Below are positions 5,800-52,439 of a stretch of 64,000 bases of DNA, in pieces. The stretch comes from Bacteroidales bacterium (GTDB taxonomy: Bacteria > Bacteroidota > Bacteroidia > Bacteroidales > VadinHA17), in the NCBI GenBank assembly GCA_038207725.1, contig JBBQZN010000006.1:4824-68823 (forward strand). The letters are read 5' to 3'. Both the position numbers and the translations under genes were made by a program. Numbering within the stretch: position 1 is the stretch's first letter; each line of letters begins with the position of its first letter. The notes under the pieces are model-generated. The model saw only the letters and a program-made list of their open reading frames with translations. It was not told the DNA's origin and ran no database searches.

Positions 5800-5804
5800 A
5801 AATA

Positions 5805-6668: not shown

Positions 6669-6679
6669 TTTTCAACAGA

Positions 6680-7084: not shown

Positions 7085-7094
7085 AATCAGAACA

Positions 7095-8090: not shown

Positions 8091-8109
8091 ATTTTTAAAT
8101 TTTAACCGG

Positions 8110-8117
8110 CAAATGTA
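8110..8117 (-). promoter_or_regulatory. Bacteroidota -7 promoter box (TACATTTG) for the moxR-bat operon
   Basis: The reverse complement of caaatgta matches the TAnnTTTG consensus. It lies 20 nt upstream of the moxR ATG. Confidence 0.45.
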
Positions 8118-8220
8118 ATAAAACTGGTACTAAAAACTGTTTAAATATTCAAATGTTGAAACAGTTCACAAAGGAACTCTGTGAATCTCTAAAGTGGTGT
8201 TAATGACTGTTAAAGTTTTG

Positions 8221-9405
8221 TTAAAGGTTTTTTTGTGATGTTAATGGATTCCATTCAAATCCTGATCTCATAGAACTCCTGACAAGGATTATAACTGCCA
8301 AAGGAATTACTGCAAGATTAAACTCCTGTGGCATAATGAAATGCAACAGCACAAAAACTGCAGACAGAACAAAAACAATTCTATACCAAAGCAGTATTGG
8401 TTTGTTTAGAATAAGGAGTATCAGGCAGACAATAATTGCAGGATTAAGCCATATAATATTCAGGTTCATTCGCATCTGTGCATGATCAGTGAAGAAATTG
8501 AAGAAGATCATCAAAACTGCAAGAATTGAGTAAACAGAGTATATAACAAGATCCATTCTCCTGCTCGTCTTACTATTTTTATTTAACCCCGACAATATTA
8601 TAACTAAAATCATAAGTCCGATAAATAAATACAAAGGAGCTGAGAATATCCTGTTCTTTAAAACGGGAGGTTCATAGTCTAGGATTACTTCAGGATTCTG
8701 TAATAGCGGAATCATTTTTCCATCACGGTTGACCACTGCTTTTGATAATCCCTCTTTCAGATCTATTGGCAGGAACAACCTGTCACGAAACAACGCATCC
8801 TTATCGCCTGATGATCCCATAATGAGATCAACTCCGAATTTGTACCATGGATATGCAGCCTGGTATTTGCCAACCATCTGTCTGAAAGTAGGAGGCTTAT
8901 TCAGTTCAACAGGTGGATAGAGCAATGTGGGGCCAACAGCTTTTTCCAGAAGGTCTCTTATCCGTGTTGAGCAGTCATCATAAAAAAAGTCATATCTGTA
9001 TTTTATATTTTCAGGCTTGAGGTTTTCATTTATCAATTCCAGCAAGCGCTTTTTTTCGACTGCTGTAATATTGATTTTCTGTGACACTACATATCTTTCT
9101 TCGTAAAAGTAGAATGACAGAAAACTATTAAGCGAGTCATCACCGAGGTAGTAATTAAGCCTTCCTTTTGCAAATTTCCATGCAAAATTTGGTGTATCAA
9201 AATCAAAAATTCCCCAGTTATAGATCTTATCCGAGTTTGCCGATTTGATTTCAACTCTCAGGGCGCTGTGTCCGTAAACTGAATAGGTTTCTGTGCCCGG
9301 TCCGCAGGTAATAAGATATATAACAGTATCATTTGCAGGCTGAGAAAACAGCAATGGAGAACCTGACAGCAAAAGAATATTGAGAAACAGCAATACTTTT
9401 TTCAT
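8221..9405 (-). CDS. DUF4105 (Lnb N-terminal periplasmic domain)-like membrane protein
   Basis: Signal peptide, then ITCGPGTETYSVYGHSALRV, which is typical of DUF4105. The C-terminus has multiple TM helices. Confidence 0.65.
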   Translation of the reverse strand: MKKVLLFLNILLLSGSPLLFSQPANDTVIYLITCGPGTETYSVYGHSALRVEIKSANSDKIYNWGIFDFDTPNFAWKFAKGRLNYYLGDDSLNSFLSFYFYEERYVVSQKINITAVEKKRLLELINENLKPENIKYRYDFFYDDCSTRIRDLLEKAVGPTLLYPPVELNKPPTFRQMVGKYQAAYPWYKFGVDLIMGSSGDKDALFRDRLFLPIDLKEGLSKAVVNRDGKMIPLLQNPEVILDYEPPVLKNRIFSAPLYLFIGLMILVIILSGLNKNSKTSRRMDLVIYSVYSILAVLMIFFNFFTDHAQMRMNLNIIWLNPAIIVCLILLILNKPILLWYRIVFVLSAVFVLLHFIMPQEFNLAVIPLAVIILVRSSMRSGFEWNPLTSQKNL

Positions 9406-9526
9406 ACTAATTCTGTTTCTGTAAACGTAAGCGTTTTTTAGCAGAAAAGAAAGTACTGAGCATGGAGTGAATCGTGAGAGTTCAAAAAACAGTATTTTTA
9501 GAAATCATAGTGAAGAAAACTGATAT

Positions 9527-10921
9527 ATGATTAAACATCTCATATTAAGTGTTTTAATTACGGCTTTTTCATCTGTACATTTATTTGCAGAGGAAAAAGT
9601 GTTCATAAGTGATATTCATATTGCCGGCAACAGAACAACAAAGGAAAAGGTAATTTTAAGGGAGCTGACATTTCAAAAGGGCGATACCTTATATATATAT
9701 GATTTTGAAAAGAGATTAGCACTTTCGCGTGAAAATCTCCTGAACACATCGCTGTTTAATTATGTATCAATCAGCAAAAATGACATTTCAGCAGGCAAAA
9801 TTAATATCATCATATCGGTTGAAGAGCGCTGGTATACATGGCCATCGGTGATTCTTAAATATGATGACAGAAATTTCAGTGCCTGGCTGAAGGAAGGTGA
9901 TCTGTCACGATCAATGTATGGAGTTTCGCTCGAGAAGTACAATTTCAGAGGAAGAAAAGAGAATCTTAAATTAGCTTTACTTTCCGGTTATGCCAATCAA
10001 TTCTATCTATCATATAAAAACATTGCCTTAGACAGTAAAAAGAAACATTTTATAGGCGCTGATATTGAACTTTCAAAACAGGATGAGATAATTTATAAAA
10101 CAGAAGATAATAAACCTGTTACTTTCAGCAACAGTTACAAAACAGTTTATGAGCGTCAGAAGTATACATTTAATTATATGTACAGGCCCTTTATTTACAG
10201 CCGGCATAATTTCTATTTCAACTATGTAAAATACAATGTGGCTGATACAATTATCAGGCTAAACCCTATTTTTCTTTTAAACGGAAAATCAAAAATGAAC
10301 TGTTTTACACTTGACTATCTCTATACTTTTGACAAACGCGATCTGAAAGCATATCCACTTGATGGATCAGTATTCGAAATTCTGATCGGACAAACAATTT
10401 CAACACAATCATCTGATAACAGATTTTCTTCCACAGTTGTAATACCAACCTACTACAGGTACTTTGAAATCAATAAACGGTTCCATTATGCTGCAGGGTT
10501 TAACCTTAAACTCTCTTTTACTAATAATCCTTCGTATATGTACTCAAAATCAATGGGATACAATTACAACATGCATGGTTTTGAGTATAATACAATAGAA
10601 GGTCAGCATTTTATTATTATAAAAAACCTTTTCAAGATTACACTCCTGAATCCACGGGTTTCCGAATTGAGATTTATTCCTCTCAAAAAATTCAATAAGG
10701 TCCATTATGCCTTATACTTTAATATCTTCAGTGATATGGGGTATGTTTCAGACAAATACAGTACCGATGACAATGATTATGCAAATAAATTTCTGGTAAG
10801 TGCCGGAGCAGGCCTTGATCTTGTGACGTATTATGACAGGACATTCAGATTTGAATATGCAATTAATGGTTTTGGCAAGAGCGGATTTTTCATTCATCTT
10901 ACTGCTCCTCTTAATAAATAG
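9527..10921 (+). CDS. Omp85/BamA-family outer-membrane protein (single POTRA plus beta-barrel)
   Basis: POTRA-like IHIAGNRTTKEKVILRELTFQKGD. The rest is rich in aromatic-alternating beta strands, ending in ...FFIHLTAPLNK. Confidence 0.65.
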   Translation: MIKHLILSVLITAFSSVHLFAEEKVFISDIHIAGNRTTKEKVILRELTFQKGDTLYIYDFEKRLALSRENLLNTSLFNYVSISKNDISAGKINIIISVEERWYTWPSVILKYDDRNFSAWLKEGDLSRSMYGVSLEKYNFRGRKENLKLALLSGYANQFYLSYKNIALDSKKKHFIGADIELSKQDEIIYKTEDNKPVTFSNSYKTVYERQKYTFNYMYRPFIYSRHNFYFNYVKYNVADTIIRLNPIFLLNGKSKMNCFTLDYLYTFDKRDLKAYPLDGSVFEILIGQTISTQSSDNRFSSTVVIPTYYRYFEINKRFHYAAGFNLKLSFTNNPSYMYSKSMGYNYNMHGFEYNTIEGQHFIIIKNLFKITLLNPRVSELRFIPLKKFNKVHYALYFNIFSDMGYVSDKYSTDDNDYANKFLVSAGAGLDLVTYYDRTFRFEYAINGFGKSGFFIHLTAPLNK

Positions 10922-10960
10922 ACTATTTTTATATCAACTTGATAAATTCAAATCAATAAC

Positions 10961-12064
10961 ATGTTTCTTATGAAATCATTTCAACTCCTGGCACTTGCGT
11001 TCATACTGATTATCAGTAGTTCAGCTGGCATAAAGCAATCGAAAACAGTTGTTTCAATAAAGGATGGCCAGTTCTATATCAATGGGAAAATTACATATGA
11101 AGAAAGGTACTGGAACGGTACAAAAATTGAAGGATTACTTATGAATTCACGAATGGTTCAGGGAATTTATGATGATGTTAATACTGAAACAACTGATTTA
11201 TGGGTTTATCCTGATACCAAAAAGTGGGATGCAGAGCGTAATAACAATGAGTTTATTAAAAACATGAGTAAATGGAAAAGTTACGGACTGCTTTCATTTA
11301 CAATAAATATGCAGGGAGGCAGTCCTCAGGGATATTCTGCCTCACAGCCATGGAATAACTCAGCATTTTCTAATGATGGATCGCTCAAGCCGGAATATAT
11401 GAAAAGACTTGAGAAAATACTGGATAAGGCAGATGAACTGGGTATGGTCCCGATTCTCGGACTGTTCTATTTCGGTCAGGATGAGAGATTAACTGATGAA
11501 AAAGCAATCATAAATGCAGTTAACAATACAATTGAATGGCTCTTTGTTCGCGATTACCGCAATATTCTTATAGAGATTGATAATGAATGTAATGTGAATA
11601 AGTATGATCATGATATCCTTAAACCTGAAAGAGTGCATGAGCTCATCGAACTTGCAAAAAGTAAGGAGAAGAATGGTTTCAGGTATTATGTGAGCACGAG
11701 CTATGGAGGCGGTGCGATACCTCAGCCAAATGTTGTAAAAGTATCTGATTTCATACTATTGCATGGCAATGGCGTAACAAATCCCGACAGAATAACTGAA
11801 ATGGTTGAAAAGACTAGAAAAGTAGAAGGATACAAATTACAACCTGTTTTATTCAATGAGGATGACCATTTTAACTTCAAACAGGAACATAATAACTTTA
11901 CAGCAGCAGTAAAAAGTTATGCTTCATGGGGCTACTTTGATTACAGGATGAAGGATGAAGGTTTTTCTGAAGGTTATCAGAGTGTTCCAGTTGACTGGGG
12001 CATCAACTCTGAAAGAAAAATTCAATTCTTCGGGCTGCTGAAAGAGATAACTGGGACAAAATAG
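10961..12064 (+). CDS. putative secreted TIM-barrel glycoside hydrolase (GH5-like NE motif)
   Basis: Signal peptide and an IEIDNECN motif resembling the GH-A clan acid/base Asn-Glu. The function is tentative. Confidence 0.5.
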   Translation: MFLMKSFQLLALAFILIISSSAGIKQSKTVVSIKDGQFYINGKITYEERYWNGTKIEGLLMNSRMVQGIYDDVNTETTDLWVYPDTKKWDAERNNNEFIKNMSKWKSYGLLSFTINMQGGSPQGYSASQPWNNSAFSNDGSLKPEYMKRLEKILDKADELGMVPILGLFYFGQDERLTDEKAIINAVNNTIEWLFVRDYRNILIEIDNECNVNKYDHDILKPERVHELIELAKSKEKNGFRYYVSTSYGGGAIPQPNVVKVSDFILLHGNGVTNPDRITEMVEKTRKVEGYKLQPVLFNEDDHFNFKQEHNNFTAAVKSYASWGYFDYRMKDEGFSEGYQSVPVDWGINSERKIQFFGLLKEITGTK

Positions 12065-12173
12065 GCTTTTAAGTATTGAAATTGCCTTCCTTTTTGTTAG
12101 TTTTATGCCCGTTATGAACGAATATCATTCTGAATTAAAATTCATTATTATACATCATTAAATTTCCAGAAAA

Positions 12174-12974
12174 ATGAAAAAGATTACATTAGCATCAATC
12201 ATTATGTTCGCATTTCTTGCAAGCAGTTGCAAGAATGAGAAACCTATTCAGATTACAGACCTTCATATTCACGTAAAAGGAGGATTTACGATAGAAGATG
12301 CAGTAATAAAATCAAAAAAAGAGAATATAAACTACGGTATTGTGATGAACTGCGGTGTTGGTTTCCCTGTTCATAACGACAGTCAGATTGATTCAGTGCT
12401 TCTTACCCTGAAGGATTATCCTCAGTTTGTGATAGGGATGCAGGCTGAAGGAAGAGAATGGGTTAACACCTTCTCACAGGAATCAATGAACAAATTTGAT
12501 TATGTTTTTACTGATGGAATGACATTTACTGATGCACAGGGCAGAAGGAACAGGATCTGGGTAAAAGAAGAAACATGGATTGATAATGAAGAAGAGTTCA
12601 TGGATTATCTGGTTAATACTATTGAAAAAATTCTTCTCACAGAACCAATAAATATTTATGTAAACCCAACATTCCTGCCGGCTCAGATGGCAGACAGATA
12701 TGACACATTCTGGACAGATGCCAGAATGGACAAGGTAATCAATGCTGCAAAGGCAAAGAATGTTGCGATCGAAATAAACAACAGGTACAAGATCCCTTCT
12801 GTTAAATTTCTTGAAAGGGCTAAAAAGGCAGGAGTAAAATTCACAGTTGGAACAAATAATGCAAATGCCGATTTTACTGGTGCTGCATACGCCCTTGAAG
12901 TCATTGAAAAATTAGGTCTTACTCAGGACTATTTCTACCAGCCTGTCAATAAAAGGGTGAATGGAAAACTTTGA
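12174..12974 (+). CDS. hypothetical lipoprotein, possible metal-dependent hydrolase
   Basis: Lipobox LASSC and an N-terminal DLHIHVKGG His motif. No firm family assignment. Confidence 0.5.
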   Translation: MKKITLASIIMFAFLASSCKNEKPIQITDLHIHVKGGFTIEDAVIKSKKENINYGIVMNCGVGFPVHNDSQIDSVLLTLKDYPQFVIGMQAEGREWVNTFSQESMNKFDYVFTDGMTFTDAQGRRNRIWVKEETWIDNEEEFMDYLVNTIEKILLTEPINIYVNPTFLPAQMADRYDTFWTDARMDKVINAAKAKNVAIEINNRYKIPSVKFLERAKKAGVKFTVGTNNANADFTGAAYALEVIEKLGLTQDYFYQPVNKRVNGKL

Positions 12975-39886: not shown

Positions 39887-40066
39887 ATGAATAAAATTGA
39901 AGTTATTGCATTTTCTGCAGCTTTTGCAATTGTAGCAATGAAGTTATATCAGAAATATTATAAAAAGGACCAGAACAAAGGTTCTGGCAATAATCAAAAA
40001 CAGGGAGGCAATTTATTATCATCAGGTCATGGTGACGATGATTATGAACCTTACTCTAAAAAATAG
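39887..40066 (+). CDS. 59-aa small membrane protein (below the ORF-track cutoff)
   Basis: MNKIEVIAFSAAFAIVAMKLYQKYYKKDQNKGSGNNQKQGGNLLSSGHGDDDYEPYSKK has one TM helix and a charged tail. It has its own -7 box and is convergent with the HlyD gene, 8 nt stop-to-stop. Confidence 0.4.
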   Translation: MNKIEVIAFSAAFAIVAMKLYQKYYKKDQNKGSGNNQKQGGNLLSSGHGDDDYEPYSKK

Positions 40067-40073
40067 GATTCTG

Positions 40074-41363
40074 CTATCTCCTGTTTCTGGTAATCATGTA
40101 ACGGAATGGATTCAGTATCTTCTGGAGTAAATTAACATCATCGGTAATTATTTCAGCAGTACCCTGCATCTTCTGGTTGAATTCAAGTGAATGTCCGTAC
40201 AATGTTTTAAGACCATCAGGCAGCAGAACCTCAATTACATAGGTATCTCCGGCAGGAACCAATGATTTTGATCTGACGATGCCTCTGACCATACCAAATT
40301 CGAGGTACGGATATCCGCTTAGTTTGATATTTACCTGCTGACCTGCTTTTACTTTTCCTGATCTGTACATACCAAGATAAATTCTTCCCAGGAAATCTCC
40401 GGTTTGTGCCGGAATTATGTTCATTACCGGATCATCTTTTGCGACTGACTGATTCACGCTCCAGTACTTTGTAAATGAAACACTTCCGGCAACAGGTGAG
40501 ATCAGAAGGTAGCGATCCTCCCAAATTTTCAGCTGAGCTTTAAGATTAAAGAATGATTCCATGAGTATTGTCACGAGTGTTTCCCTCTCCTCACTGCGTT
40601 TAATGCGGTAATCCTGTAGCAATTGCTCTCTTTCAGCAAGGAGAATAATCCTTTCAGCATGCTGAAGGCGAACATCCTGGAGTTCTATTCTTATCTTTAA
40701 CAGTGATTGCTGAGATGCCTCTTTTGTGCTTTCAGAAACAGCATTACCCGCGAACAGGCTTGAGTCGCGTTTGAATTTTTTGATTTCAAGATTCTGATTC
40801 TGAATAAGCAATTTTTCCTTAACATACAGACTACTTATATAATTGCCCAATCCATTAATTTCTGTTTTCAGGGAGATTACCTTGTTCCCGTAAAAGTCAT
40901 TAATATCATAAGTTCCAAGATTCCTGACATTCCTGAGGAAAAGGGAATAAAATTCCTGCAACTCTCCCAATTCAGTAAATACCGGCATTGAATCAGATGA
41001 AATCAGTTCTGGTTTATTAAGTGTATCTAGTACACTTCTTAATGTTTCTATTTCCCCGACAGATGCCGTTGACTCCATAACTGCAAGCAGTTGATTACTC
41101 TGGACTTTATCCTTTTCTTTAACGTATAGTCGTTCTATATGGCCTGTAATTTTTGATGAAATGGTTACCGGAGGGTTCTGAGTGGTAATTTCTATTTCAG
41201 AAGGAATAACATCAGGATATCGGATGATCCATGAAAAAACAAATAGCAAAATGAAGACAGCAAACAGCACAAATGTTCCCCACCTCACTATCCTGCCGGG
41301 AGGTGTGCCCATTATTTCCTTAACAGTATCAGAATAAAGTATGTCTGGTTTTCTTTCCTTCAT
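40074..41363 (-). CDS. HlyD-family secretion adaptor (bacteriocin/peptide export accessory)
   Basis: N-terminal TM helix, a lipoyl-like hairpin (GHIERLYVKEKDKVQSNQLLAVME), a long coiled coil and a C-terminal beta domain. It lies immediately downstream of the C39-ABC exporter. Confidence 0.85.
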   Translation of the reverse strand: MKERKPDILYSDTVKEIMGTPPGRIVRWGTFVLFAVFILLFVFSWIIRYPDVIPSEIEITTQNPPVTISSKITGHIERLYVKEKDKVQSNQLLAVMESTASVGEIETLRSVLDTLNKPELISSDSMPVFTELGELQEFYSLFLRNVRNLGTYDINDFYGNKVISLKTEINGLGNYISSLYVKEKLLIQNQNLEIKKFKRDSSLFAGNAVSESTKEASQQSLLKIRIELQDVRLQHAERIILLAEREQLLQDYRIKRSEERETLVTILMESFFNLKAQLKIWEDRYLLISPVAGSVSFTKYWSVNQSVAKDDPVMNIIPAQTGDFLGRIYLGMYRSGKVKAGQQVNIKLSGYPYLEFGMVRGIVRSKSLVPAGDTYVIEVLLPDGLKTLYGHSLEFNQKMQGTAEIITDDVNLLQKILNPFRYMITRNRR

Positions 41364-41371: not shown

Positions 41372-43558
41372 TTAGTTGCCTAAATCAAGCTGATTCCTTA
41401 TCAGGTTAAAATATGCCCCTCTGTTGAGAAGAAGAGTCTCATGATTTCCTGTTTCAATTATTCTTCCACTCTCGATAACAATAATTTTGTCAGCATTTCT
41501 TACAGTACTTAACCTGTGTGCTACAATTACAACAGTTTTGCCTTTAAAGAAACCTGCAAGATTTTCAACAATGACTTTTTCATTATTTGCATCCAGCGAA
41601 TTTGTGGCCTCATCGAACAGTATTATTTCCGGATTTTTATACACGACACGTGCAATAAGGATCCTTTGCTTCTGGCCTTCGCTTAAGCCATGGCCGTTAT
41701 TCCCTATTTTAGTATTGAATCCCAGGGGCAAAGATTCAATCAATCCTTTTATATTGGCAATCTCTACTGCCTTTACAAGTTTCTCATCATCAATCTCCTG
41801 AGAGCCCGGTGCTATATTTGCTGCAATTGTATCGGGAAAAAGGAAACCATCCTGCATAACTGCACCTACTTTTTCCCTCCACATTTTCAGGCTTATATTT
41901 GACAAACGTGAATCGCCAATTAAGATCTCACCTCCTACCGGCTGATAAAAGCCGAGAAGAATTTTTAAAAGAGTTGTTTTTCCGCTTCCGCTTGTGCCTA
42001 CAATAGCAGTTACCTTACCTGCTTCAATATGAAGATCAGCATTTTTCAATGCAAAAGCAGAACGTGGTCCCTCGTACTGAAAAGAAAGGTTATTGACATA
42101 TATATCCTTTTTATCAGGAAGTTTACTTATTTTGTTTTCAGGATCTGGCACTTCATTATCCATTTCATGAACTTCAGATAGTCGTGACAGACTCATCCTT
42201 GCATCCTGCGACATTCTGAAGAAGCCTATTATCTGGCTTATTGGTACGTTCATCTGACCAATAATAAACTGAACGGCCAGCATCATTCCAAGTGTCATAT
42301 TTCCTTTCAGCACTGCAGTTGCAGCAACAATTGTAATGAGAACATTTGTAACTTCATTTATAAATGCTGCTCCGGCCGACTGATATTGGATTATACTCAG
42401 ACCTTTGACCTTAAGTTTAAACAAAGAGGCCTGAAGGTTTTCCCAGTCCCACCGCATACTAAGCTCACTTCGCGTCAGCTTTATTTCCTGCATGCCATTA
42501 ATAATGTTGATCAGTTTTGTTCCTGATGCTGACATTTGCTTGAAGCGCAGATTATCAAGATGGGCTCTTGATTTCATGAAAAGAGACACCCACAAAATAT
42601 AGAGAAAAGCACCGGTCAGAAATATCAGCAAAATTTTAAGGCTGAAAATAGCCAGCACAACACTGAATACTACAATATTAAAGAACGAGAACAGGATACT
42701 CAGACTTGCTGAAGTCAGAAATTCTTCAATCCTGTTATTGTCTTCAACACGCTGAAAAATATCACCAGTCAGTTTTGTGTCGAAAAAAGCGACAGGAAGT
42801 GACATCAGTTTCTGAAGGAAACCTGAAACTATGGCGACATTGACCCTTGAGCCAATATGAAGCAGGAGCCAGCCACGAATAAATTCAACAGATAATTTCC
42901 CAAGAAGCAGGGCAAGTTGTGCAAAGAGAATAAGGTAAATAAAGCCAAGATCATTATTATTCAAGCCAACATCAATTACTGACTGAGTCAGAAATGGAAT
43001 AACAAGCTGAATGCAACTTCCAAGAAAAAGTCCAATTAATAGCTGGAATAAATACTTTCTATAAAACCTGAAATATTTAAAAAGAAAGCGGAATCCTCCT
43101 GTTTTTTCCGGTTCAGTAATATTTTCATGAAGCGCGGGAGTCGGTTCAATGATAAGAACAAGTCCGGCAGCTTTTCCTTCAATGGTTGTGGCACCCCACG
43201 ATTTAATAAATTCCTGCACTGAATATGTAATCAATCCCACAGCAGGATCAGCAACCCAAACCTTATTGTTTTTTATTTTATATACAACAATAAAGTGTTT
43301 TTGACGCCAGTGAACAATACAAGGTAATGGCACATTCTCTGACATGACATCAAACGGAATCTTAACACCCAGAGTACGGAATCCTACCGAATCAGCGGCT
43401 TCTGACAGGCCCAGGAAAGATACGCCCTCCTTTGTAATATAGCACCTCCTTCTGAGAGTATCGAGCGAAATGGTTCTTTTGTAAAAACCTGCAATCATCT
43501 TGAGACAAGATGGTCCACAATCCATTGCATCGGGCTGTTTTACAAAAGGGAATGACAT
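41372..43558 (-). CDS. peptidase-C39-domain ABC exporter (PCAT; double-glycine leader processing/export)
   Basis: The N-terminal C39 domain has catalytic Cys (QPDAMDCGPSCLKMIAGFY) and His (CIVHWRQKHFIVVY). There are six TM helices, Walker A GTSGSGKTT, signature LSEGQKQR and Walker B ILFDEATN. The start was set at MSFPFVKQ (ATG at 43558). Confidence 0.9.
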   Translation of the reverse strand: MSFPFVKQPDAMDCGPSCLKMIAGFYKRTISLDTLRRRCYITKEGVSFLGLSEAADSVGFRTLGVKIPFDVMSENVPLPCIVHWRQKHFIVVYKIKNNKVWVADPAVGLITYSVQEFIKSWGATTIEGKAAGLVLIIEPTPALHENITEPEKTGGFRFLFKYFRFYRKYLFQLLIGLFLGSCIQLVIPFLTQSVIDVGLNNNDLGFIYLILFAQLALLLGKLSVEFIRGWLLLHIGSRVNVAIVSGFLQKLMSLPVAFFDTKLTGDIFQRVEDNNRIEEFLTSASLSILFSFFNIVVFSVVLAIFSLKILLIFLTGAFLYILWVSLFMKSRAHLDNLRFKQMSASGTKLINIINGMQEIKLTRSELSMRWDWENLQASLFKLKVKGLSIIQYQSAGAAFINEVTNVLITIVAATAVLKGNMTLGMMLAVQFIIGQMNVPISQIIGFFRMSQDARMSLSRLSEVHEMDNEVPDPENKISKLPDKKDIYVNNLSFQYEGPRSAFALKNADLHIEAGKVTAIVGTSGSGKTTLLKILLGFYQPVGGEILIGDSRLSNISLKMWREKVGAVMQDGFLFPDTIAANIAPGSQEIDDEKLVKAVEIANIKGLIESLPLGFNTKIGNNGHGLSEGQKQRILIARVVYKNPEIILFDEATNSLDANNEKVIVENLAGFFKGKTVVIVAHRLSTVRNADKIIVIESGRIIETGNHETLLLNRGAYFNLIRNQLDLGN

Positions 43559-43677
43559 TACTGAACAGGGAATTAAAAAATGATAGTAAAGATATTTATA
43601 ATTTGATATTGACAATCGGGGTTTAATATAAAATAGGAGCCCCTGGTATATTAAATCCTTTTTGGGTTTGGAAATAG

Positions 43678-43710: not shown

Positions 43711-44277
43711 TTGTTAAATAAGATTTCAGATATTGATATTATCAAAGGGGTGCGCAAACAGGATGTCAAGATCCTGAATTGGCTCTATGATAACTATCTG
43801 CCATCTATAAGGTCATACTTATTTAATAATAGTGGCAATGAACAGGATGCGTCTGATGTTTTTCAAGACACAATAATAATCTTGTATAAGCAGATAAAAG
43901 GCAATAAACTTAAGCTAACAACCGATCTTAAGGGATATTTTTTTGGTATTGCCAGGAATATATGGAGTGAACAGCTCCGGAGAATTGGAAAAACTACTGA
44001 ATTAACTGTCGATTTTCCCGATGCGACTGAACCGGATGAGATAGTTGATCCCGTTATGGAAAGAGTTGTTTCCCGTGCTTTTCTTAAGTTAAAACCGGAT
44101 CAGCAGAAGATCCTTAATCTATACTCTGATGGATTAACTTACGAGAAAATTGCAATAAAAATGAAATTCAAGAATGAAAGTTATGCACGCCGTAAAAAGT
44201 ACCTCAGCAAAGAAGCTCTTCTTGACATTGTAAAAGAAGATCCTGAATATCAGGAATATCTGCGGTTTCTGAAATAG
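43711..44277 (+). CDS. ECF-type RNA polymerase sigma-70 family factor
   Basis: Region 2 (DASDVFQDTIIILYK ... YFFGIARNIWSEQLRR) and region 4 HTH (LTYEKIAIKMKFKNESYARRKKYLSKEAL). The apparent start is TTG, with no in-frame ATG in the N-terminal region. Confidence 0.85.
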   Translation: MLNKISDIDIIKGVRKQDVKILNWLYDNYLPSIRSYLFNNSGNEQDASDVFQDTIIILYKQIKGNKLKLTTDLKGYFFGIARNIWSEQLRRIGKTTELTVDFPDATEPDEIVDPVMERVVSRAFLKLKPDQQKILNLYSDGLTYEKIAIKMKFKNESYARRKKYLSKEALLDIVKEDPEYQEYLRFLK

Positions 44278-47200
44278 ATTACGATAATAACAGCCAAAGC
44301 CACAAATGCAAACACTACCAGCAGAAACATCTTCTTATCATAAAAAAGGGAGGAGTTATCCCCATAAATTACCAGAGTAGCCCAGAAATATGGATGAGAT
44401 CTAAGGTTATCTGCTTTCTTAAGATATTTTATTCTTGCATCTTTCAGGGCTTCACTTTTTGATTTGCCCCGCATCAGGTTATCATAAAAGTACTTTACAA
44501 TCTCAGTACCTGATTTATCCTCTACTTCCCATAAAGACATCACTACAGAAAGACTCCCTGAATACATAAATCCTCTTGCAAGACTTAAAATTCCTTCGCC
44601 AGAAGAGAGTTGCCCATTCCCCGTATTGCATGAGCTTAATACTACCATTCTGGCTTTTGAGGTAGTACCATATAATTCATAGGTCTTAAGATAGCCATCC
44701 TCGATTGTTCCTGACTCCTTATTGAATATCAGAGTTGAATACATAGGATCAGAATCATTCAGAATTGTATGCATCGCCAGATGAATAATGTCATACTTTC
44801 CAGACTCTGCTTTAAAGTTCGATTCGCTTGCCTGTTCATTCAGGTAAACCTTTCCATCAGTAATTTCCGCTACATAAGCGGCTTCCTCCCTGGCATACGG
44901 AAGGTCAGCCAGAAATCCTTCTTCAGCCTGCCGGCTGTTAATTACCTTTCGGATATCGATTGGCTCATAATATTTTGGAGCAAATGCAACCAGCCGGGAA
45001 TCAAAATTAAACCGCCTCTTAACTGCTTCACTCATGAATGTGGCTGAATATGTATATGAAATGTTATAATCATTCATAAGAAAAGGTAACCTTTTATATG
45101 AAAAATCAATTCCGGTTTCATAAGACACCGGCAGCGCTTCAAATGGAATATATGAGAGGATATTATCAGGAGATAATAGCAGATTATCTGAAATAAGAAA
45201 AGGTTTTAGCGGTTTTATGAGCTTATCATATAAAACTAATCCATTTTCAACAAATTTATGGAATGAGAGTCTGGCATTATCCGATTGGCCGGGCTGTGAA
45301 AGCAATAGTCTGAAACTTTTTAATGAGTTAAAGAAAGATGAATCAACAGGTATTGCCATTAAGTTCTGATATTTACGGTTGACTACAAAGATATATAGTA
45401 AAGTATCCGAGGAAATATAGTTTACATAGTTGACATTCCTGCCAACAATGTTAGTAATATCTTTAAGTTCAGCGACTTTAGTATTGTATTTAATTGAATA
45501 ATACTCAGGATATTGCTTCTCGAAAACTAGTATCAGCGAATCTTTCTGTCTGGTTGCTATCAGGAGTCTTTCCCTGAGATTTTTAAGGTATTCAGGGTCT
45601 GGCTTGGCTGCTTTAAGATGTTGGCTTATATAATCATTATAGATCCCGATATCTTTCTTAAGGCGTATTTCAAGTTCAGAAACTTCCTCTGGAATCTGAA
45701 ACTGAGAAGCTTTTAATTCCCGTGTTGAAGCCAGTAATCCGGCAACCTTGCTCTTCTCTGAATAGATAAAAGCTTTTTCAAGATATTTCAGCTCAGATGT
45801 ACTTGAGTAAAGAAGATTAAAGTCGCGTATGCAATTCAGATATGAGTCTCTGTATCTGTCACCCAGAATAAGTCTGCTTTCCTCTTCATTAATACTTATT
45901 CTTACTTTTTCAAGAACAGATATTATCAGCTCAGATGTTGAAGCTGCCGCTTCAAGTAAAAGCGGATCATTTTTTCCGGTGTACAAATCCCATAGGATAT
46001 TGTATTTCGCTGCCAGAACACGCAGTGATTTCCTGTCATTTTTTATTTCGCTTACTCCGGAATTTGAAAGAGTACCCGGAGTTTCTCCATCAGTAACTAA
46101 TGAAAAAAGAGCCATTTGAATGATCTCAAGTGCTTTATCTGATCTTCCGGCTTCTGCAAGTGATTGTGCGTAACCCAGATAAATCGATGATCGCAGTTGT
46201 AAATCCCTTTCATTTTTATTAAGATAGTCAATGCACAAATCAAAGTATCTGATTGATTTCAGATTATCAATTTTGTATTCTCTGAGGTAATTGGCATAAT
46301 TAATTACTACCTCAATATACTTACGTGACCCTGCACCATATACTTTTTCTGATTGTATAAGAGCTTTTAGTAATAGGCCCTCCCCTCTTTTTTGGTTTCC
46401 GGCATTACCCAGTATAACTGCATAGCTGTTGATTACATTGTAACTGTTGGTAGTGTTTTGCGATTCAGCAAGATTTAAGGCTTTAACTAAATACTCCTCA
46501 GCCTTTTGAGGTAATTTTAGGTTAATATAAAGGCTTGCAAGTGAATTCAACAAATTTATATAGTCACTGCTATTCGTTAATTTATTCTCAATCAATATCT
46601 GTTCTGTCTTTTCAAGATAGAGTTTAGCATTTGAAAAATCTGACATTCTGAAATAGCAAACTCCGAGATTATGATATATATAGGTGAGGCTTTTTAATGT
46701 TTCATCTGATGTGTTTTTACCAATTATACCAATAGCATAATTAGATAAAGCGATAACTTCATTATACTTCTGAAGCTCAAGTTTTGCAATTCCAAGATTA
46801 ACATAATTCTCTATCAAAGCAGAATTTGAATCAGACTTAATTTTAGTATCAATATCAATAGACTTCTTAGCAGCAACCTCAAGTCTGTAAAAGTCACCAA
46901 GCTCTGAAATGGCGAAACATAAATTATAATTAGCATTACTATAAAGTATATCAAACCTTTCCATGCTCTCCATTCTGACAATTGCAACACCAAGATATTC
47001 TATTGCTTTATAATTATTTCCGGTTTTCAGATAATATACACCAATATAATAATTTGCCTCACAATATAAGTTATTTGTTATTGCGGTGGATTTAAGCAGA
47101 GAAATCATACGTGGGATGATTATCCCGGCTGGAATAGTATCGTCCCTGAGGAGAAGAACCCGAAGATCTTCAGTCAACGATTTCAATTCAGGACTTTCTG

Positions 47201-47351
47201 CTGCTTGTAAAGAAATGGAGGAGTTGTCTAAGTAAGTATTGTGAGATTCTATTTTTTCAATAAATGAACCATATACCAAAGAAGACTGATTGCACAACTG
47301 GCAATACAGAATTATTGTAAGACAAATAATGGCTCTTTTAATCCAGATCAT
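44250..47351 (-). CDS. secreted, C-terminally membrane-anchored TPR-CHAT protease
   Basis: Signal peptide MIWIKRAIICLTIILYCQLC and many TPR-like repeats over about aa 90-460. The CHAT core carries a His/Cys dyad (DIIHLAMHT ... MVVLSSCNTG) and HPYFWATLVIYGD. The C-terminal TM helix MFLLVVFAFVALAVIIVIYF is followed by RNRRYS. Confidence 0.88.
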   Translation of the reverse strand: MIWIKRAIICLTIILYCQLCNQSSLVYGSFIEKIESHNTYLDNSSISLQAAESPELKSLTEDLRVLLLRDDTIPAGIIIPRMISLLKSTAITNNLYCEANYYIGVYYLKTGNNYKAIEYLGVAIVRMESMERFDILYSNANYNLCFAISELGDFYRLEVAAKKSIDIDTKIKSDSNSALIENYVNLGIAKLELQKYNEVIALSNYAIGIIGKNTSDETLKSLTYIYHNLGVCYFRMSDFSNAKLYLEKTEQILIENKLTNSSDYINLLNSLASLYINLKLPQKAEEYLVKALNLAESQNTTNSYNVINSYAVILGNAGNQKRGEGLLLKALIQSEKVYGAGSRKYIEVVINYANYLREYKIDNLKSIRYFDLCIDYLNKNERDLQLRSSIYLGYAQSLAEAGRSDKALEIIQMALFSLVTDGETPGTLSNSGVSEIKNDRKSLRVLAAKYNILWDLYTGKNDPLLLEAAASTSELIISVLEKVRISINEEESRLILGDRYRDSYLNCIRDFNLLYSSTSELKYLEKAFIYSEKSKVAGLLASTRELKASQFQIPEEVSELEIRLKKDIGIYNDYISQHLKAAKPDPEYLKNLRERLLIATRQKDSLILVFEKQYPEYYSIKYNTKVAELKDITNIVGRNVNYVNYISSDTLLYIFVVNRKYQNLMAIPVDSSFFNSLKSFRLLLSQPGQSDNARLSFHKFVENGLVLYDKLIKPLKPFLISDNLLLSPDNILSYIPFEALPVSYETGIDFSYKRLPFLMNDYNISYTYSATFMSEAVKRRFNFDSRLVAFAPKYYEPIDIRKVINSRQAEEGFLADLPYAREEAAYVAEITDGKVYLNEQASESNFKAESGKYDIIHLAMHTILNDSDPMYSTLIFNKESGTIEDGYLKTYELYGTTSKARMVVLSSCNTGNGQLSSGEGILSLARGFMYSGSLSVVMSLWEVEDKSGTEIVKYFYDNLMRGKSKSEALKDARIKYLKKADNLRSHPYFWATLVIYGDNSSLFYDKKMFLLVVFAFVALAVIIVIYFRNRRYS

Positions 47352-47405: not shown

Positions 47406-47504
47406 ACATTACCAAATACCCTGATTTCTGTCGTTTTTTACACCCCTGTATATACTTGATATTCAGATTAATGAAAAATAGTTTGAAAATAGTTGGTTTT
47501 TTCG

Positions 47505-47529
47505 TGTCACAAAAAGGCACTTTTTGACA
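47505..47529. promoter_or_regulatory. near-perfect inverted repeat in the CHAT/peptide divergent intergenic region (candidate operator)
   Basis: TGTCACAAAAAG-GCA-CTTTTTGACA has 10-11 bp arms with a 1-nt bulge. It lies 56 nt upstream of the peptide ATG. Confidence 0.35.
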
Positions 47530-47584
47530 TGTAGCAATATAAGACATTAATTTTTTTACAAATTATCCTGAAAAAAAAAAGACT

Positions 47585-47719
47585 ATGAAAACTCTGAATT
47601 TTGAATCAAACGAAATCAATCTTGACAAATTTATTCTTTCATCTGAAGAAATGTTTGCAGTACGTGGCGGCGAATCTGAGCCAATTGTTCTTCCATCAAA
47701 ACCTCCGATCAGAGTTTGA
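47585..47719 (+). CDS. 44-aa double-glycine-leader peptide precursor (not in the ORF track)
   Basis: MKTLNFESNEINLDKFILSSEEMFAVRGG|ESEPIVLPSKPPIRV. The leader fits the LSxxE(L/M)xx(I/V)xGG consensus cleaved by C39 PCATs. The ORF starts at an ATG after an A10 leader, and a PCAT plus HlyD pair lies about 4 kb away. Confidence 0.65.
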   Translation: MKTLNFESNEINLDKFILSSEEMFAVRGGESEPIVLPSKPPIRV

Positions 47720-47738: not shown

Positions 47739-47770
47739 TTATCCTGATAAAGGGATAAACTTTTTTATTT
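47739..47770 (+). terminator. weak hairpin plus T-tract after the peptide ORF
   Basis: ttatcc-tgataaag-ggataa is followed by acttttttattt. The stem is only 6 bp and AT-rich. Confidence 0.3.
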
Positions 47771-47863
47771 GTTATTTCTGTATTATTGGCATTTCCCTGA
47801 ATAGAATATGATTTTATGAGTATCAGGAATCATGCATAAAATATTAATTTTATTTGCAGCTCA

Positions 47864-47942
47864 TACCCCCTTCCCAACCTTCCCCCAGGGGGGAAGGAGC
47901 ACCAAATAAAGCTTTTCCCCTTTGGGGGAAACGGGAAAGGGG
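47864..47942. repeat. about 79-bp GC-rich mini-element, copy 2, flanked by GCTCAT direct repeats
   Basis: TACCCCCTTCCCAACCTTCCCCCAGGGGGGAAGG...TAAAGCTTTTCCCCTTTGGGGGAAACGGGAAAGGGG. The termini are imperfect inverted repeats (CCCCCTTCCC / GGGAAAGGGG), and GCTCAT occurs at 47859-47864 and 47942-47947. Confidence 0.7.
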
Positions 47943-48185
47943 CTCATTTTAAAAATATGAAAGTATTTGTATATTAGCATTATACAAAGAAGGGAGTATT
48001 AAGTTAATCAAATTATTAATCATTGCCGATAGTCATATATGATTTTATACAGTTAAAGGAAACATACATAAATTTGCAGGATTGTTGCTGATACCTATTC
48101 TGGTGCATTAAGTTGGAATTCAGCAGGAATCAGACAGAATCGGATCGTGATCCGGGCAGATAATATTTATTTAATTAATTAAGTT

Positions 48186-48932
48186 ATGGAAACAATTGAT
48201 TTTTCATCTTTCATTGAAAAGTATATTGCCGGAGAGATGAGTAACACAGAACGCAGATGGTTCGAAAAGGAACTTGAAGGTAATGCCAGTTTAAGGCAGG
48301 AAGTCGAACTCAGAAGAACAACCGACAAAATACTTCAGAACAAGGACATACTGTCGCTAAGAGGCAAACTATCGGAGATAGAGAAAAACAGGTCAAAATC
48401 AAAACGTTACATTATGCCTGCTGTACCTGCATTTTATAAATATGCAGCAGCAATAACATTGCTTATAGCTGTTGGAACAATGACATATCAGCCATGGGCC
48501 GACATGAGCAACGAACAGATAATTACGAAGTATTATAGTTCCTATGAGCCACCGGCAGCACAGAGGTCGGCCAACGGCACAACTAACGCACTTTTCAAGA
48601 AAGCCCTTGAGTTATATAGCACGCAGAATTATGAACAAGCTGCTATATTTTTCGCCAGGGTAATAGAGAACAATCCAAAGGATATGCAATCGATGCTGCT
48701 TAACGGGGTTGCAAACTTTGAAAGCAGTAAATATCCCGAGGCCAAACAATCGTTCAATAAGGTAATTGATGATAACAACAACCTTTTTATTGACCAGGCT
48801 GAATGGTATCTGGCATTATGCTATATAAAAACCGGCCAGAATGATAGAGCCAGAGCCCAGTTAACAACAATCAGAGCAGGAGAAGGAATTTATAAGACAA
48901 ATGCCAGAAAGATTCTAAGGAAGTTAAAATAA
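48186..48932 (+). CDS. single-pass anti-sigma-factor-like protein with extracytoplasmic TPR domain
   Basis: The N-terminus FIEKYIAGEMSNTERRWFEKELEGNASLRQEVELRR fits the zinc-less anti-sigma-domain pattern (Y-L/I-x-G-E-L/M-S..E...FE..L). The TM helix YKYAAAITLLIAVGTMTY is preceded by NRSKSKRY. The C-terminus has TPRs (YEQAAIFFARVIENNP..., YPEAKQSFNKVI..., AEWYLALCYIKTGQ). Confidence 0.68.
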   Translation: METIDFSSFIEKYIAGEMSNTERRWFEKELEGNASLRQEVELRRTTDKILQNKDILSLRGKLSEIEKNRSKSKRYIMPAVPAFYKYAAAITLLIAVGTMTYQPWADMSNEQIITKYYSSYEPPAAQRSANGTTNALFKKALELYSTQNYEQAAIFFARVIENNPKDMQSMLLNGVANFESSKYPEAKQSFNKVIDDNNNLFIDQAEWYLALCYIKTGQNDRARAQLTTIRAGEGIYKTNARKILRKLK

Positions 48933-48949: not shown

Positions 48950-49786
48950 ATGTTCCAAACATCGCTTAATGATATTTTCCATGTTGAGAACTCAGACATG
49001 AGTATAAAGAAAACTAGGGAGAAGATGAATCCAGAGAGGACTAATATTACCAATTGTCCGGCAGTTCTTAGGGGTATGTCGCATGAGATGAGAACTCATA
49101 TGAATGCTATTGTGGCATTCTCGTTCCTCATGAAAGAAAAAAGTTGTGAAACTTCAGAAAGAGAGGAATACTGCAAACAAATATTCAGTTCCTGCGATCA
49201 GCTTTTAGGGCTGTTTGATACATACTTTGATTCAGCTATGATAGAGAATAGCAATTACAGGTCTGATTCACACAGTTTCAAACTCGACAATATTCTAAGC
49301 GAGCTTATACCGGAGTTCAGGGAACAAACAAAAAAGGAAAATAAGTCAGATCTGGAATTTTTAACGGAGATTCAATTTAATAATTCAATAGATGTATTTC
49401 TTGACAAGGATAGGATTTTAAGGGTAATCCGAAGCCTTTTTAATAATTCCATCAAAAACACAGATTCAGGGTACATTAAAATAGGTTATTATTTAAGAGA
49501 TGAATTATTAACATTTTACGTACTCGATTCGGGCCAGGGTTATTTAAAATGCAAAGAATTTCTTCATTCTGAAGATATAACTATGTCGCTTGCAATATAT
49601 AATGATCCTTATTCAGCGATGAATATAACTCTGGCCAAGAAGCTTATTCAGTTGTTAGGAGGTAATATATGGATAGAAAATAACGGTCTTTCAGGCTCCG
49701 GATTCTACTTTTCTATACCCGTTAATATGGAGATGACCTCCAAAGCAATAATAGATAAATATGTAAATACAAAAATTACGATTTGA
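48950..49786 (+). CDS. sensor-less cytoplasmic histidine kinase core (HisKA plus HATPase_c)
   Basis: H-box MSHEMRTHMNAI, N-box FNNSIKNT, G1 LDSGQG and G2 GLSGSGFYF. There is no TM or input domain, and it starts 18 nt after the anti-sigma-like gene. Confidence 0.8.
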   Translation: MFQTSLNDIFHVENSDMSIKKTREKMNPERTNITNCPAVLRGMSHEMRTHMNAIVAFSFLMKEKSCETSEREEYCKQIFSSCDQLLGLFDTYFDSAMIENSNYRSDSHSFKLDNILSELIPEFREQTKKENKSDLEFLTEIQFNNSIDVFLDKDRILRVIRSLFNNSIKNTDSGYIKIGYYLRDELLTFYVLDSGQGYLKCKEFLHSEDITMSLAIYNDPYSAMNITLAKKLIQLLGGNIWIENNGLSGSGFYFSIPVNMEMTSKAIIDKYVNTKITI

Positions 49787-51809: not shown

Positions 51810-52439
51810 TTATGGTATATGCATATATTTATGAACCTGAAGTGATACTCTCCACTGAGGATTTTTCTTAACATATTCAACTATTTCCGGAATAATTACT
51901 TCGAAACGGCTCCATTCAGGCTGCAGATAAAGGCGACAGGTATTGTTTACAAGAGTGCTAAACTTTTCAGCCCATTCAAAATCATCTGAATTTTGAATAA
52001 TTACTTTTAATTCGTCAGCAATTTTATATATTTCATTGACAGGGGGGGAATTTCTCTTTGGAGAGAGACAAATCCAATCCCATATACCACTTACAGGGTA
52101 TGCTCCGGATGTTTCAATAAAGGTACTTATTTTTTTGTTTTTTAATCCTTCACAGAGGTAATCCAGATTCCATATAAGAGGTTCTCCTCCTGTTATTACT
52201 ACTGAGTCGGTACCAGATTCAACGATATTTTTAATAATATCATCGGAACTAACTACCGGGTGAATATCAGGATTCCATGAAAACCGTGAATCGCACCAGC
52301 TGCAACCAACATCACAGCCACCTAATCTGAGAAAATAAGCGGCTTTGCCTGTATGGAAACCTTCACCCTGTAAGGTATAGAACTCTTCAACAACAGGCAG
52401 AAATTTACCCTCCTCAGATTTATCAGTTAATTCATCCAT
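51810..52439 (-). CDS. queE: 7-carboxy-7-deazaguanine synthase (radical SAM)
   Basis: EEFYTLQGEGFHTGKAAYFLRLGGCDVGCSWCDS is the QueE N-terminal signature with the CxxxCxxC cluster, followed by VVITGGEPL. Confidence 0.85.
   Translation of the reverse strand: MDELTDKSEEGKFLPVVEEFYTLQGEGFHTGKAAYFLRLGGCDVGCSWCDSRFSWNPDIHPVVSSDDIIKNIVESGTDSVVITGGEPLIWNLDYLCEGLKNKKISTFIETSGAYPVSGIWDWICLSPKRNSPPVNEIYKIADELKVIIQNSDDFEWAEKFSTLVNNTCRLYLQPEWSRFEVIIPEIVEYVKKNPQWRVSLQVHKYMHIP

Follow-up and report, generated by a model that had tools for sequence, protein, structure and literature searches.

What does an open reading frame (ORF) of only 44 codons do between the gene for a large caspase-like protease and that for an anti-sigma-like protein? 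The question is raised by a stretch of 64,000 nucleotides from a Bacteroidales bacterium (GenBank assembly GCA_038207725.1, contig JBBQZN010000006.1, positions 4,824 to 68,823 of the forward strand), here called the window, in which a first-pass annotation made from the letters alone had pointed to the ORF at 47585-47719 as a candidate precursor of an exported peptide. The first part of the answer is that this ORF is a functional gene for a 44-amino-acid precursor, under purifying selection in a broad environmental clade of Bacteroidales, and that the peptide family to which it belongs is unannotated and has several hundred members. The second part, which concerns function, is more tentative: the explanation that we favour, at a confidence somewhat short of even, is that an exported, unmodified peptide would be the output, and probably also the ligand, of a switch built from a sigma factor, an anti-sigma-like protein and a protease.

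The 44-codon reading frame is a gene

The gene and its parts are as follows.

47585-47719, plus strand: precursor peptide gene, 44 codons, with ATG at 47585 and the stop codon at 47717-47719
47585-47671, plus strand: leader of the precursor, 29 amino acids, ending in Gly-Gly
47672-47716, plus strand: core of the precursor, ESEPIVLPSKPPIRV

Sequence and translation are exactly as the first-pass annotation had claimed, with a leader MKTLNFESNEINLDKFILSSEEMFAVRGG followed by the core ESEPIVLPSKPPIRV, so that the whole precursor encoded on the plus strand reads MKTLNFESNEINLDKFILSSEEMFAVRGGESEPIVLPSKPPIRV. When all six frames of the window were searched with the leader pattern L[ST]..[ED][LMIV]..[IVL].G[GAS], one match was returned against 0.05 expected from 100 shuffles, and the peptide ORF is the sole ORF of the double-glycine (GG) type in the window.

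Homologous small ORFs were looked for beside orthologous protease genes, a check that the first-pass annotation had proposed. Searching a genome collection with the neighbouring CHAT protein yielded seven loci in Bacteroidales metagenome-assembled genomes (MAGs), whose CHAT orthologues are 45-51% identical to that of the window, and all seven carry, at the same site and divergent from the CHAT gene, an ORF of 40-46 amino acids with the same leader and a related core. Orthologues of the peptide are found in all syntenic loci, about 100 overall. The substitution pattern, likewise checked, is that of coding sequence: among eight peptide orthologues the differences per codon position are 0.31, 0.26 and 0.57, length differences are multiples of three only (in-frame insertions or deletions), and the nonsynonymous rate (dN) is below the synonymous rate (dS) in 28 of 28 pairs, with values of 0.039 and 0.368, respectively, for the peptide genes of loci L004 and L005.

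The family extends well beyond these loci. A profile of nine peptides retrieved 574 proteins at E<=1 from a collection of 5.8 billion proteins, nearly all of them 44-46 amino acids long; none of the 574 carries a Pfam domain, and the sources that give a name all say 'hypothetical protein'. An exhaustive hidden Markov model (HMM) search of 1.84 billion cluster representatives found 112 representatives at E<=0.001, and a metagenome scan added 231 further coding instances of the peptide.

Leader, core and family assignment

Counted back from the Gly-Gly, the leader of the window peptide has Val at -4, Met at -7, Glu at -8 and Leu at -12, as had been noted in the first-pass annotation. An alignment of 111 members shows no variation at M1, L-12 (L18), E-8 (E22), M-7 (M23), G-2 (G28), G-1 (G29) and one proline of the core, and I-6, V-4 and [RK]-3 are near-invariant, position -4 being Val in 105 of the 111 and Ile in the remainder. 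The leader positions that C39 peptidase domains use for substrate recognition are those of the L-12, E-8, M-7, V-4, GG type; the positions that the family holds constant are thus the C39 recognition positions, and the proposed fit to the C39 consensus is borne out.

The 15-residue core of the window has four prolines, neither Cys nor Thr, and a net side-chain charge of 0, in agreement with the earlier description of a proline-rich and Cys-free core. In the 111 members the core follows the scaffold [ED]-x-[DE]-P-[IV]-x-x-[PT]-x-x-P-P-[IV]-x-[IVL]-COOH, with four hypervariable positions and a fixed C-terminal end point, and the family consensus core is acidic. The expectation of a constant GG motif beside a variable core therefore stands in its first half, the GG being invariant in all 111 relatives, and requires amendment in its second, as the core is a conserved scaffold in which only four positions are hypervariable. 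Two sister subfamilies, B and C, retain the leader and have remodelled cores (...KGTVTPPVTxDPE[IL] in B and ...NPTRPPVIIE[ILF] in C), and the cores of all subfamilies are short, free of Cys, acidic at the N-terminus, rich in proline and hydrophobic at the C-terminus.

The first-pass annotation had also likened the leader to that of TIGR04149, and this part did not hold. The window peptide has no match to any NCBIfam or Pfam model even at E<=10, and TIGR04149 matches 23 of the 111 relatives at sub-threshold scores only (best E 0.0013), so a TIGR04149 or Pfam identity was rejected. A lichenicidin-A2 leader model gives weak matches in 15 of the 111 relatives, and TIGR01847 (bacteriocin_sig) matches four of them weakly (best E 0.053) and the window peptide not at all. 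By its sequence the leader belongs with the double-glycine leaders and comes close in style to the GG precursors of Bacteroidota, and no curated model covers the family.

No modification enzyme was found within 10 kb of the peptide gene by Pfam and NCBIfam domain searches. The sole radical-SAM gene in the vicinity (51810-52439) has its best matches in QueE models and counts among the syntenic housekeeping neighbours, so the reported absence of a nearby maturase holds.

Transporter and small membrane protein

Export of the peptide is suggested by three genes to the left of the peptide gene, the first of which encodes a peptidase-containing ATP-binding cassette transporter (PCAT).

41372-43558, minus strand: PCAT with a C39 domain (Pfam C39, 7e-36), a domain of six transmembrane (TM) helices (ABC_membrane) and an ABC ATPase (ABC_tran)
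40074-41363, minus strand: membrane-fusion or periplasmic adaptor protein of the HlyD family (Pfam HlyD_3, TIGR01843), with one N-terminal TM helix, in an operon with PCAT
39887-40066, plus strand: small membrane protein of 59 amino acids, with a TM helix at the N-terminus, a linker of low complexity and DDYEPYS[KG]K as its invariant C-terminal sequence

The mechanically called PCAT frame, 41372-43615, starts at a TTG (43615), but as homologues are 728 amino acids long and align from residue 20, translation probably begins at the ATG at 43558. The active-site Gln, Cys, His and Asp of its C39 domain align with those of LahT150 and PCAT1, for which reason the domain should be an active double-glycine protease; the first-pass annotation had likewise assigned a C39 domain to the product of 41372-43558. 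PCAT is present in every locus whose flanks are long enough, with the exception of L101, where a 2.5-kb gap with no gene called lies at the PCAT position. The HlyD gene is absent from the loci of subfamily C (L099 3661-6036, L100 371-2746 and the contig of P0327), which do carry PCAT and in which the small TM ORF abuts the 3' end of its gene.

We consider it highly probable, from the leader positions and the active-site residues, that PCAT, whose gene is 4 kb away, recognises the leader with its C39 domain through L-12, E-8, M-7, V-4 and GG and cuts after the Gly-Gly, and that a linear unmodified 15-mer, ESEPIVLPSKPPIRV, is exported. With the HlyD adaptor the peptide would leave the cell; in subfamily C, since the adaptor gene is missing, it may reach only the periplasm.

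The 59-amino-acid protein has no match among the Pfam and NCBIfam models. Its ORF carries a TAtaTTTG box of its own and sits at the transporter end of the module, away from the peptide gene, where it is kept despite a different left flank (L101) or a missing HlyD gene (L099). It is possibly a module member or an immunity-like protein.

Regulatory DNA around the peptide gene

Three elements frame the peptide gene.

47495-47533, plus strand: bipartite cis-element with invariant blocks, consisting of a T-tract, TGTCACAAA (47505-47513), a 12-nt spacer and GACATG (47526-47531)
47563-47598, plus strand: 5' leader and first codons, with a degenerate direct repeat, TTATCCTGAA (47563-47572) and ACTCTGAA (47591-47598), and an A10 tract (47571-47580)
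47739-47769, plus strand: hairpin (about 47739-47758) with a T-run (47761-47766), directly after the stop codon, a probable intrinsic terminator or attenuator

The bipartite element, TGTCACAAA-N12-GACATG, lies upstream of 88 of 94 peptide genes (76 unique instances), its blocks invariant and its spacer free, with the consensus tTgaTTTTTt..TGTCACAAAa-N-ccGACATGta placed 71-109 nt before the ATG and occurring once per locus. The remaining genes are second copies in tandem duplicates or belong to a single variant lineage. Such duplicates, in which the two peptide genes differ slightly in leader and core, were observed in L061 (639-960), L064 (1164-1480) and L075 (700-1065), and in L061 and L064 the downstream copy is without its own motif, so that the two genes are probably co-transcribed. 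The first-pass annotation had seen a 25-bp palindrome here (47505-47529); the sequence is indeed near-palindromic, but imperfectly so and only in the window, as the spacer differs in every other locus, and what is conserved is the bipartite element. The A10 tract and the weak terminator reported in the same annotation are both there, the latter as the hairpin and T-run after the stop codon.

The canonical housekeeping -7 box of Bacteroidota is TAnnTTTG. The peptide gene has none; the sigma gene of the module has a conserved TAtaTTTG, and the PCAT side has, on its own strand, a near match, TAtcTTTA. TGTCACA is an experimentally validated -35 element of ECF41 sigma factors of the extracytoplasmic function (ECF) type, in the form TGTCACA-N16-CGTC (PMC3426412). 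The likeness is one of analogy and not of membership, because the spacing in the window is 13 nt and the window sigma factor lacks the ECF41 C-terminal extension. By this analogy the bipartite element is likely an ECF-type promoter.

A second nucleotide signal overlaps the start of the gene. About 73 unique leaders define a direct repeat with the family consensus ACCCTGAA, one copy of which stands in the 5' leader and the other of which forms codons 2-5 (AAA ACC CTG AAT); the two are most often 42 nt apart, and the window's own copy is degenerate. Within it ACC is fixed in 56/73 and CTG in 62/73, though both are minority codons in the neighbouring CHAT gene, and these fixed synonymous positions point to a constraint at the nucleotide level, perhaps a protein- or RNA-binding site. 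No conserved RNA structure was found in the 5' leader of the peptide gene. The hairpin after the stop codon occupies the same position in nearly all orthologous loci with different sequences, and, given this hairpin and the dedicated upstream element, the peptide gene looks like a self-contained, specially regulated, monocistronic unit.

Further downstream, at 47860-47945, an imperfect, long, GC-rich hairpin stands in AT-rich intergenic surroundings (CCCCCTTCCC...GGGGGGAAGG / TTTCCCC..GGGGGAAA; fold z = -3.7). It is absent from the spacers between the peptide and anti-sigma-like genes of ten other loci checked and looks like a small inserted repeat element. It also accounts for the only matches in an Rfam scan of 39.5-50 kb, which were microRNA-like, due to chance, and were discarded.

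The regulatory neighbours and the constancy of the module

The most informative context of the peptide gene, which the first-pass annotation lacked, is a conserved set of an ECF sigma factor, an anti-sigma-like protein with tetratricopeptide repeats (TPR) and a periplasmic TPR-CHAT protease, accompanied by a histidine kinase (HK).

43711-44277, plus strand: ECF-type sigma-70 factor, 188 amino acids (Sigma70_r2, r4_2; TIGR02937 above cut-off), divergent from PCAT
44250-47351, minus strand: TPR-CHAT caspase-like protease, 1033 amino acids (CHAT 4e-57, TPR_12), divergent from the peptide gene
48186-48932, plus strand: TPR248, an anti-sigma-like protein of 248 amino acids, with an N-terminal helical domain, a TM segment (about 79-101) and a periplasmic TPR domain
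48950-49786, plus strand: HK278, a histidine kinase of 278 amino acids (HisKA and HATPase_c), starting 18 nt after the TPR248 gene, with no TM or sensor domain

The CHAT protein has a signal-like hydrophobic segment at residues 1-26 and a C-terminal TM segment at 1001-1030. Residues H857, H861 and C908 do not vary among 28 loci, 27 of which also keep the C-terminal TM segment and its basic tail. In view of the N-terminal signal segment and of this C-terminal anchor with its basic tail, the bulk of the protein, that is its TPR and protease domains, is predicted to be periplasmic and tethered to the membrane. The 3' ends of the sigma and CHAT genes overlap convergently by 28 nt (44250-44277), and the overlap is kept elsewhere (L014 6687-6714, and about 22 nt in L099). 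Such an arrangement may give rise to transcriptional interference or to antisense coupling.

TPR248 has a highly conserved N-terminus and a TM segment conserved among orthologues. We read it as a probable anti-sigma factor on account of its conserved layout of N-terminus, TM segment and TPR domain, a weak match to an anti-sigma model, and a homologue that is encoded directly downstream of the sigma gene in L010. This last locus, from a Saprospiraceae MAG (5162-12535), has an ECF sigma factor, a TPR anti-sigma-like protein and a divergent TPR-CHAT without a GG peptide or PCAT, and the trio is flanked by two proteins with C-terminal sorting domains of the type IX secretion system, which suggests that the sigma, TPR and CHAT trio is an older module that takes different partners. 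Three other distant CHAT loci, L011-L013, were considered as related systems and rejected, their contexts being unrelated. The HK278 gene is present in every locus, those of subfamilies B and C included, always 10-30 nt after the anti-sigma-like gene, and the module contains no response-regulator gene; in L014 and L016 a single-domain response-regulator gene lies about 9 kb away, beside groES.

The order of the module, namely small TM protein, HlyD, PCAT, ECF sigma, TPR-CHAT, peptide, TPR248 and HK278, is identical in the seven genome loci, in 80 metagenome loci as far as their flanks reach, and in five further contigs. In the sister subfamilies, whose cores are remodelled, the sigma, CHAT, peptide, TPR and HK genes are all retained, subfamily C keeps all module genes but HlyD, and L101, whose left flank is different, yet retains the small TM ORF and the remaining module. 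Two rate classes emerge when the parts of the module are compared between the window and L099, a slow one with 56% identity for PCAT, 53% for sigma and 60% for the leader, and a fast one with 32% for CHAT, 37% for TPR248, 32% for HK and 27% for the core.

An exploratory mirror-tree analysis of co-variation was made on 28 non-redundant loci, with the PCAT ABC domain as the phylogenetic baseline, and gave the following partial correlations (r).

Anti-sigma-like protein, cytoplasmic part: core 0.43, leader -0.05
Anti-sigma-like protein, periplasmic part: core 0.36, leader 0.13
CHAT, TPR region: core 0.37, leader -0.02
CHAT, protease domain: core 0.33, leader 0.28
PCAT, C39 domain: core 0.23, leader 0.31
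Sigma: core 0.16 (not significant), leader 0.36
HK278: core 0.11 (not significant), leader 0.57

Such values lend weak support to a link of the core with the anti-sigma-like protein and with CHAT.

Searches of the PDB with single sequences and with profiles were dominated by generic TPR repeats; DdvA and anti-sigma factors were absent among the matches listed, and the CHAT TPR region matched, by profile, TPRs of the RapJ, KLC and LGN types. PADLOC found no defence system, and no CRISPR or CBASS genes lie nearby.

A proposed circuit and the points that bear on it

From this gene content we infer functional links among the parts of the module, of which the export step has been given above. The peptide gene would be read from an ECF-type promoter, with TGTCACA as the -35 and CGAC/GACATG as the -10 element, and the adjacent ECF sigma factor is the most economical candidate for its reader, in which case the peptide would be a dedicated output of that sigma factor; on balance we regard this step as probable. 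The mature peptide may also be an input. With its conserved free C-terminus, PP[IV]x[IV]-COOH, and its variable middle it would bind to the periplasmic TPR domain of either the membrane-tethered TPR-CHAT or TPR248, and binding would control site-1 cleavage of the anti-sigma factor by CHAT, followed by intramembrane proteolysis and release of the sigma factor. That the peptide acts as such a ligand is a proposal we hold tentatively, giving it slightly under an even chance. Cell density or confinement would in this way be sensed through an auto-inducing loop. In its fully closed form, with the PCAT-exported 15-mer as the natural ligand of TPR-CHAT and the sigma factor then transcribing the peptide gene from the TGTCACA-type promoter, the loop is rather doubtful; were it to exist, the hypervariable positions of the core could be lineage-specific 'pherotypes'.

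Several observations weigh against this proposal. All loci belong to one clade and one fixed chromosomal site, so the synteny is in part a matter of inheritance and taken by itself is weak evidence; the retention of the module in the sister subfamilies, beside the different left flank of L101 and without HlyD in subfamily C carries more weight. The co-variation is counted as weak because differences in evolutionary rate can produce such patterns, and, while a correlation of leader and C39 domain is expected, those of the leader with HK (0.57) and with sigma are not, and the proposal does not explain the one with HK. Nor does it explain the role of a soluble HK, that of the 59-amino-acid membrane protein, or the route by which a 1.6-kDa peptide exported past the outer membrane would return to the periplasm. 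The match of TPR248 to the anti-sigma model NF052375 is weak (E 2.6e-4, below cut-off) and is seen in only three of 24 orthologues, and single-sequence structure models, with pLDDT values of 54 and 36, were too poor to use. As regards the promoter, no further copy of the bipartite motif was found in the window or the loci, the regions upstream of the other module genes included, nor in the distant locus L010; with N13 between TGTCACA and CGAC, the spacing falls short of the N16+/-1 known from ECF41; and the blocks contain an inverted TGTC/GACA, so that the element may alternatively be an operator for a dimeric transcription factor. A search for RNA runs containing the locus found none; the runs that contain it are DNA metagenomes, from sediment, freshwater and comparable environments.

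Alternative explanations

One alternative, which we think improbable, is that export of the peptide by PCAT serves a target beyond the module and is independent of it, for instance as an interspecies cue or as a peptide related to adhesion, matrix or nutrients, and that adjacency to the sigma, CHAT, TPR and HK genes reflects vertical inheritance of a stable neighbourhood. The single clade is in keeping with this, as is the synteny of the unrelated flanks (DUF349, PD40-OmpA, QueE); L010 has sigma, TPR and CHAT without peptide or PCAT, and the motif is not shared with other module genes. However, the module survives both a change of flank and the loss of HlyD, the peptide gene sits between the CHAT and anti-sigma-like genes and away from the transporter, its promoter is of a non-housekeeping, ECF-like kind near an ECF sigma gene, and its core belongs to the same fast rate class as CHAT and TPR248.

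The main rival to a signalling role as such is a bacteriocin role, in which the peptide would be an unmodified class-II-like bacteriocin or microcin, the 59-amino-acid TM protein its immunity protein, and the sigma, anti-sigma, CHAT and HK proteins regulators of production only. In its favour, PCAT and HlyD together with a GG leader make up the export set typical of bacteriocins, the transporter is accompanied by a small conserved TM protein, the leader models TIGR01847 (4/111) and lichenicidin A2 (15/111) match weakly, and peptide genes are tandemly duplicated in three loci. Class II bacteriocins and microcins have mature peptides of about 25-60 amino acids that are cationic and/or amphipathic-hydrophobic, and an adjacent immunity gene. 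The window core, with 15 amino acids, net charge 0 and four prolines, departs from this in size and charge, and the cores of the family, at 15-20 amino acids, are proline-rich, uncharged or acidic, non-amphipathic and Cys-free. Moreover, the roughly 100 loci share one fixed chromosomal site in a distribution that is neither patchy nor mobile, the core scaffold is conserved across the clade, so that neighbours would be immune, HlyD is missing in subfamily C, and the DDYEPYS tail of the 59-amino-acid protein, which matches no family, is probably cytoplasmic, unlike known immunity proteins. We therefore hold a bacteriocin to be unlikely. The first-pass annotation had preferred an unmodified signalling peptide to a pore-former, and in this it was right as far as the missing maturase and a core too short, uncharged and proline-rich for a typical pore-former are concerned; the signalling part we infer from the neighbourhood.

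No better placed is the idea that the peptide is a substrate or pseudosubstrate of CHAT, a securin-like inhibitor or decoy that would damp or time the sigma response by negative feedback. Separase-securin and Csx29-Csx30 are precedents for control of TPR-CHAT proteins through bound polypeptides. The peptide gene adjoins and diverges from the CHAT gene in all loci, the catalytic dyad is invariant in a protein predicted to be periplasmic, the divergence of the core tracks that of CHAT, and the listed cores of all three subfamilies contain a basic residue. Yet the position of that residue differs between subfamilies, no cleavage motif can be defined, and the data fit a role as activator equally well, which leaves this alternative with a small share of the probability.

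That the ORF arose by chance in a divergent promoter region is refuted by orthologue conservation, coding signature and profile relatives, and is scarcely credible: the ORF is short, under the usual gene-calling cut-offs, and matches no curated family, but its frame and length class are kept in about 100 loci and hundreds of database entries, with third-position bias, dN<dS and a leader motif expected 0.05 times per window.

Comparison with known systems

The closest likeness on the side of the peptide is with the streptococcal pheromone systems ComC/CSP-ComAB and BlpC-BlpAB, which share with this locus a short precursor with an LSxxE[LM]xx[IV]xGG leader, a C39-ABC transporter with an accessory protein, variable positions in a conserved scaffold and, as predicted here, cleavage and export of the precursor as a small linear, unmodified mature peptide; they also have a regulated promoter for the peptide gene, of which the bipartite element is a putative counterpart. 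Unlike these, the present locus is from Gram-negative Bacteroidota, its neighbours are an ECF sigma factor, a TPR anti-sigma-like protein and a TPR-CHAT, its core is proline-rich and acidic or neutral, and it has no adjacent membrane HK receptor or response regulator; a receptor of the ComCDE/BlpCHR type is not found in it, HK278 lacking TM and sensor domains and the module lacking a response regulator. To our knowledge, peptide signalling through double-glycine precursors is textbook only for Gram-positive bacteria. The radical-SAM-modified precursors of TIGR04149 (GG_sam_targ_CFB) are alike in being small Bacteroidota precursors with a similar LSxxEMxxIxGG leader style, and one relative of the peptide, P0236, is labelled 'natural product precursor' by JGI; they differ in that the HMM fails here, no radical-SAM/SPASM maturase is present and the core is Cys-free.

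Several TPR-containing systems resemble the module in part. TPR domains that bind short linear peptides are known from the RRNPP proteins (Rap/Phr, NprR, PlcR) and from carboxylate-clamp TPRs, but RRNPP proteins are cytoplasmic and need peptide import, whereas a periplasmic location is predicted for the TPRs here, and the likeness is one that TPR repeats have in common. In the type III-E Craspase (Csx29, Csx30, CASP-sigma) a TPR-CHAT is coupled to an ECF-like sigma factor through a cleaved sigma-binding protein; that system is cytoplasmic, RNA-guided and CRISPR-associated, and none of those parts occurs here. In Escherichia coli, C-terminal peptides of outer-membrane proteins activate DegS, upon which RseA is cleaved and the ECF sigma factor sigmaE released. 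The likeness of the proposed circuit to DegS-RseA is one of logic only (a free hydrophobic peptide C-terminus, a periplasmic site-1 protease and a single-pass anti-sigma factor), as DegS combines a PDZ domain with a serine protease and responds to misfolded porins, in contrast to a TPR and CHAT cysteine protease with a purpose-made peptide, and there is no homology.

The nearest counterpart of the regulatory part is DdvA-DdvS of Myxococcus, in which DdvA is an anti-sigma factor fused to a periplasmic TPR-CHAT and has an unknown activating signal (PMC11506125). The mechanism proposed for it is site-1 (self-)cleavage by CHAT followed by proteolysis of the RseP type (PMC11506125). Both systems encode an ECF sigma factor together with a predicted periplasmic TPR-CHAT that bears a His-Cys dyad. 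Here, unlike in DdvA, two proteins take these parts: the TPR-CHAT lacks an anti-sigma domain at its N-terminus and is tethered by a C-terminal TM segment, and the anti-sigma-like protein has a small TPR domain of its own. The locus also includes a dedicated peptide, probably exported, with its PCAT, and PADLOC finds no match; sequence similarity to DdvA was not detectable in single-sequence or profile searches of the PDB.

In the literature searched, no paper combines CHAT, C39 and TPR ('CHAT' matches in PMC9308784 are author names, not the domain), and neither peptide quorum sensing in Bacteroidota nor peptide-to-ECF signalling was found. Were the proposed circuit correct, Bacteroidota would have their first self-signalling circuit based on a peptide, and ECF sigma factors a new route of input; were the peptide a bacteriocin, it would be an unusually small, proline-rich and non-cationic one. 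Under either reading, several hundred unannotated small genes and a very clean, conserved, promoter-like motif are added to the annotation. The combination of periplasmic TPR-CHAT and ECF sigma factor has only just been described structurally, in DdvA, where the activator is unknown, and the present locus offers a candidate ligand encoded in cis, a 15-mer that can be made synthetically. The locus is, in sum, a variant of two known kinds, the peptides of GG leader and PCAT on the one hand and the ECF sigma factors controlled by TPR-CHAT proteins on the other.

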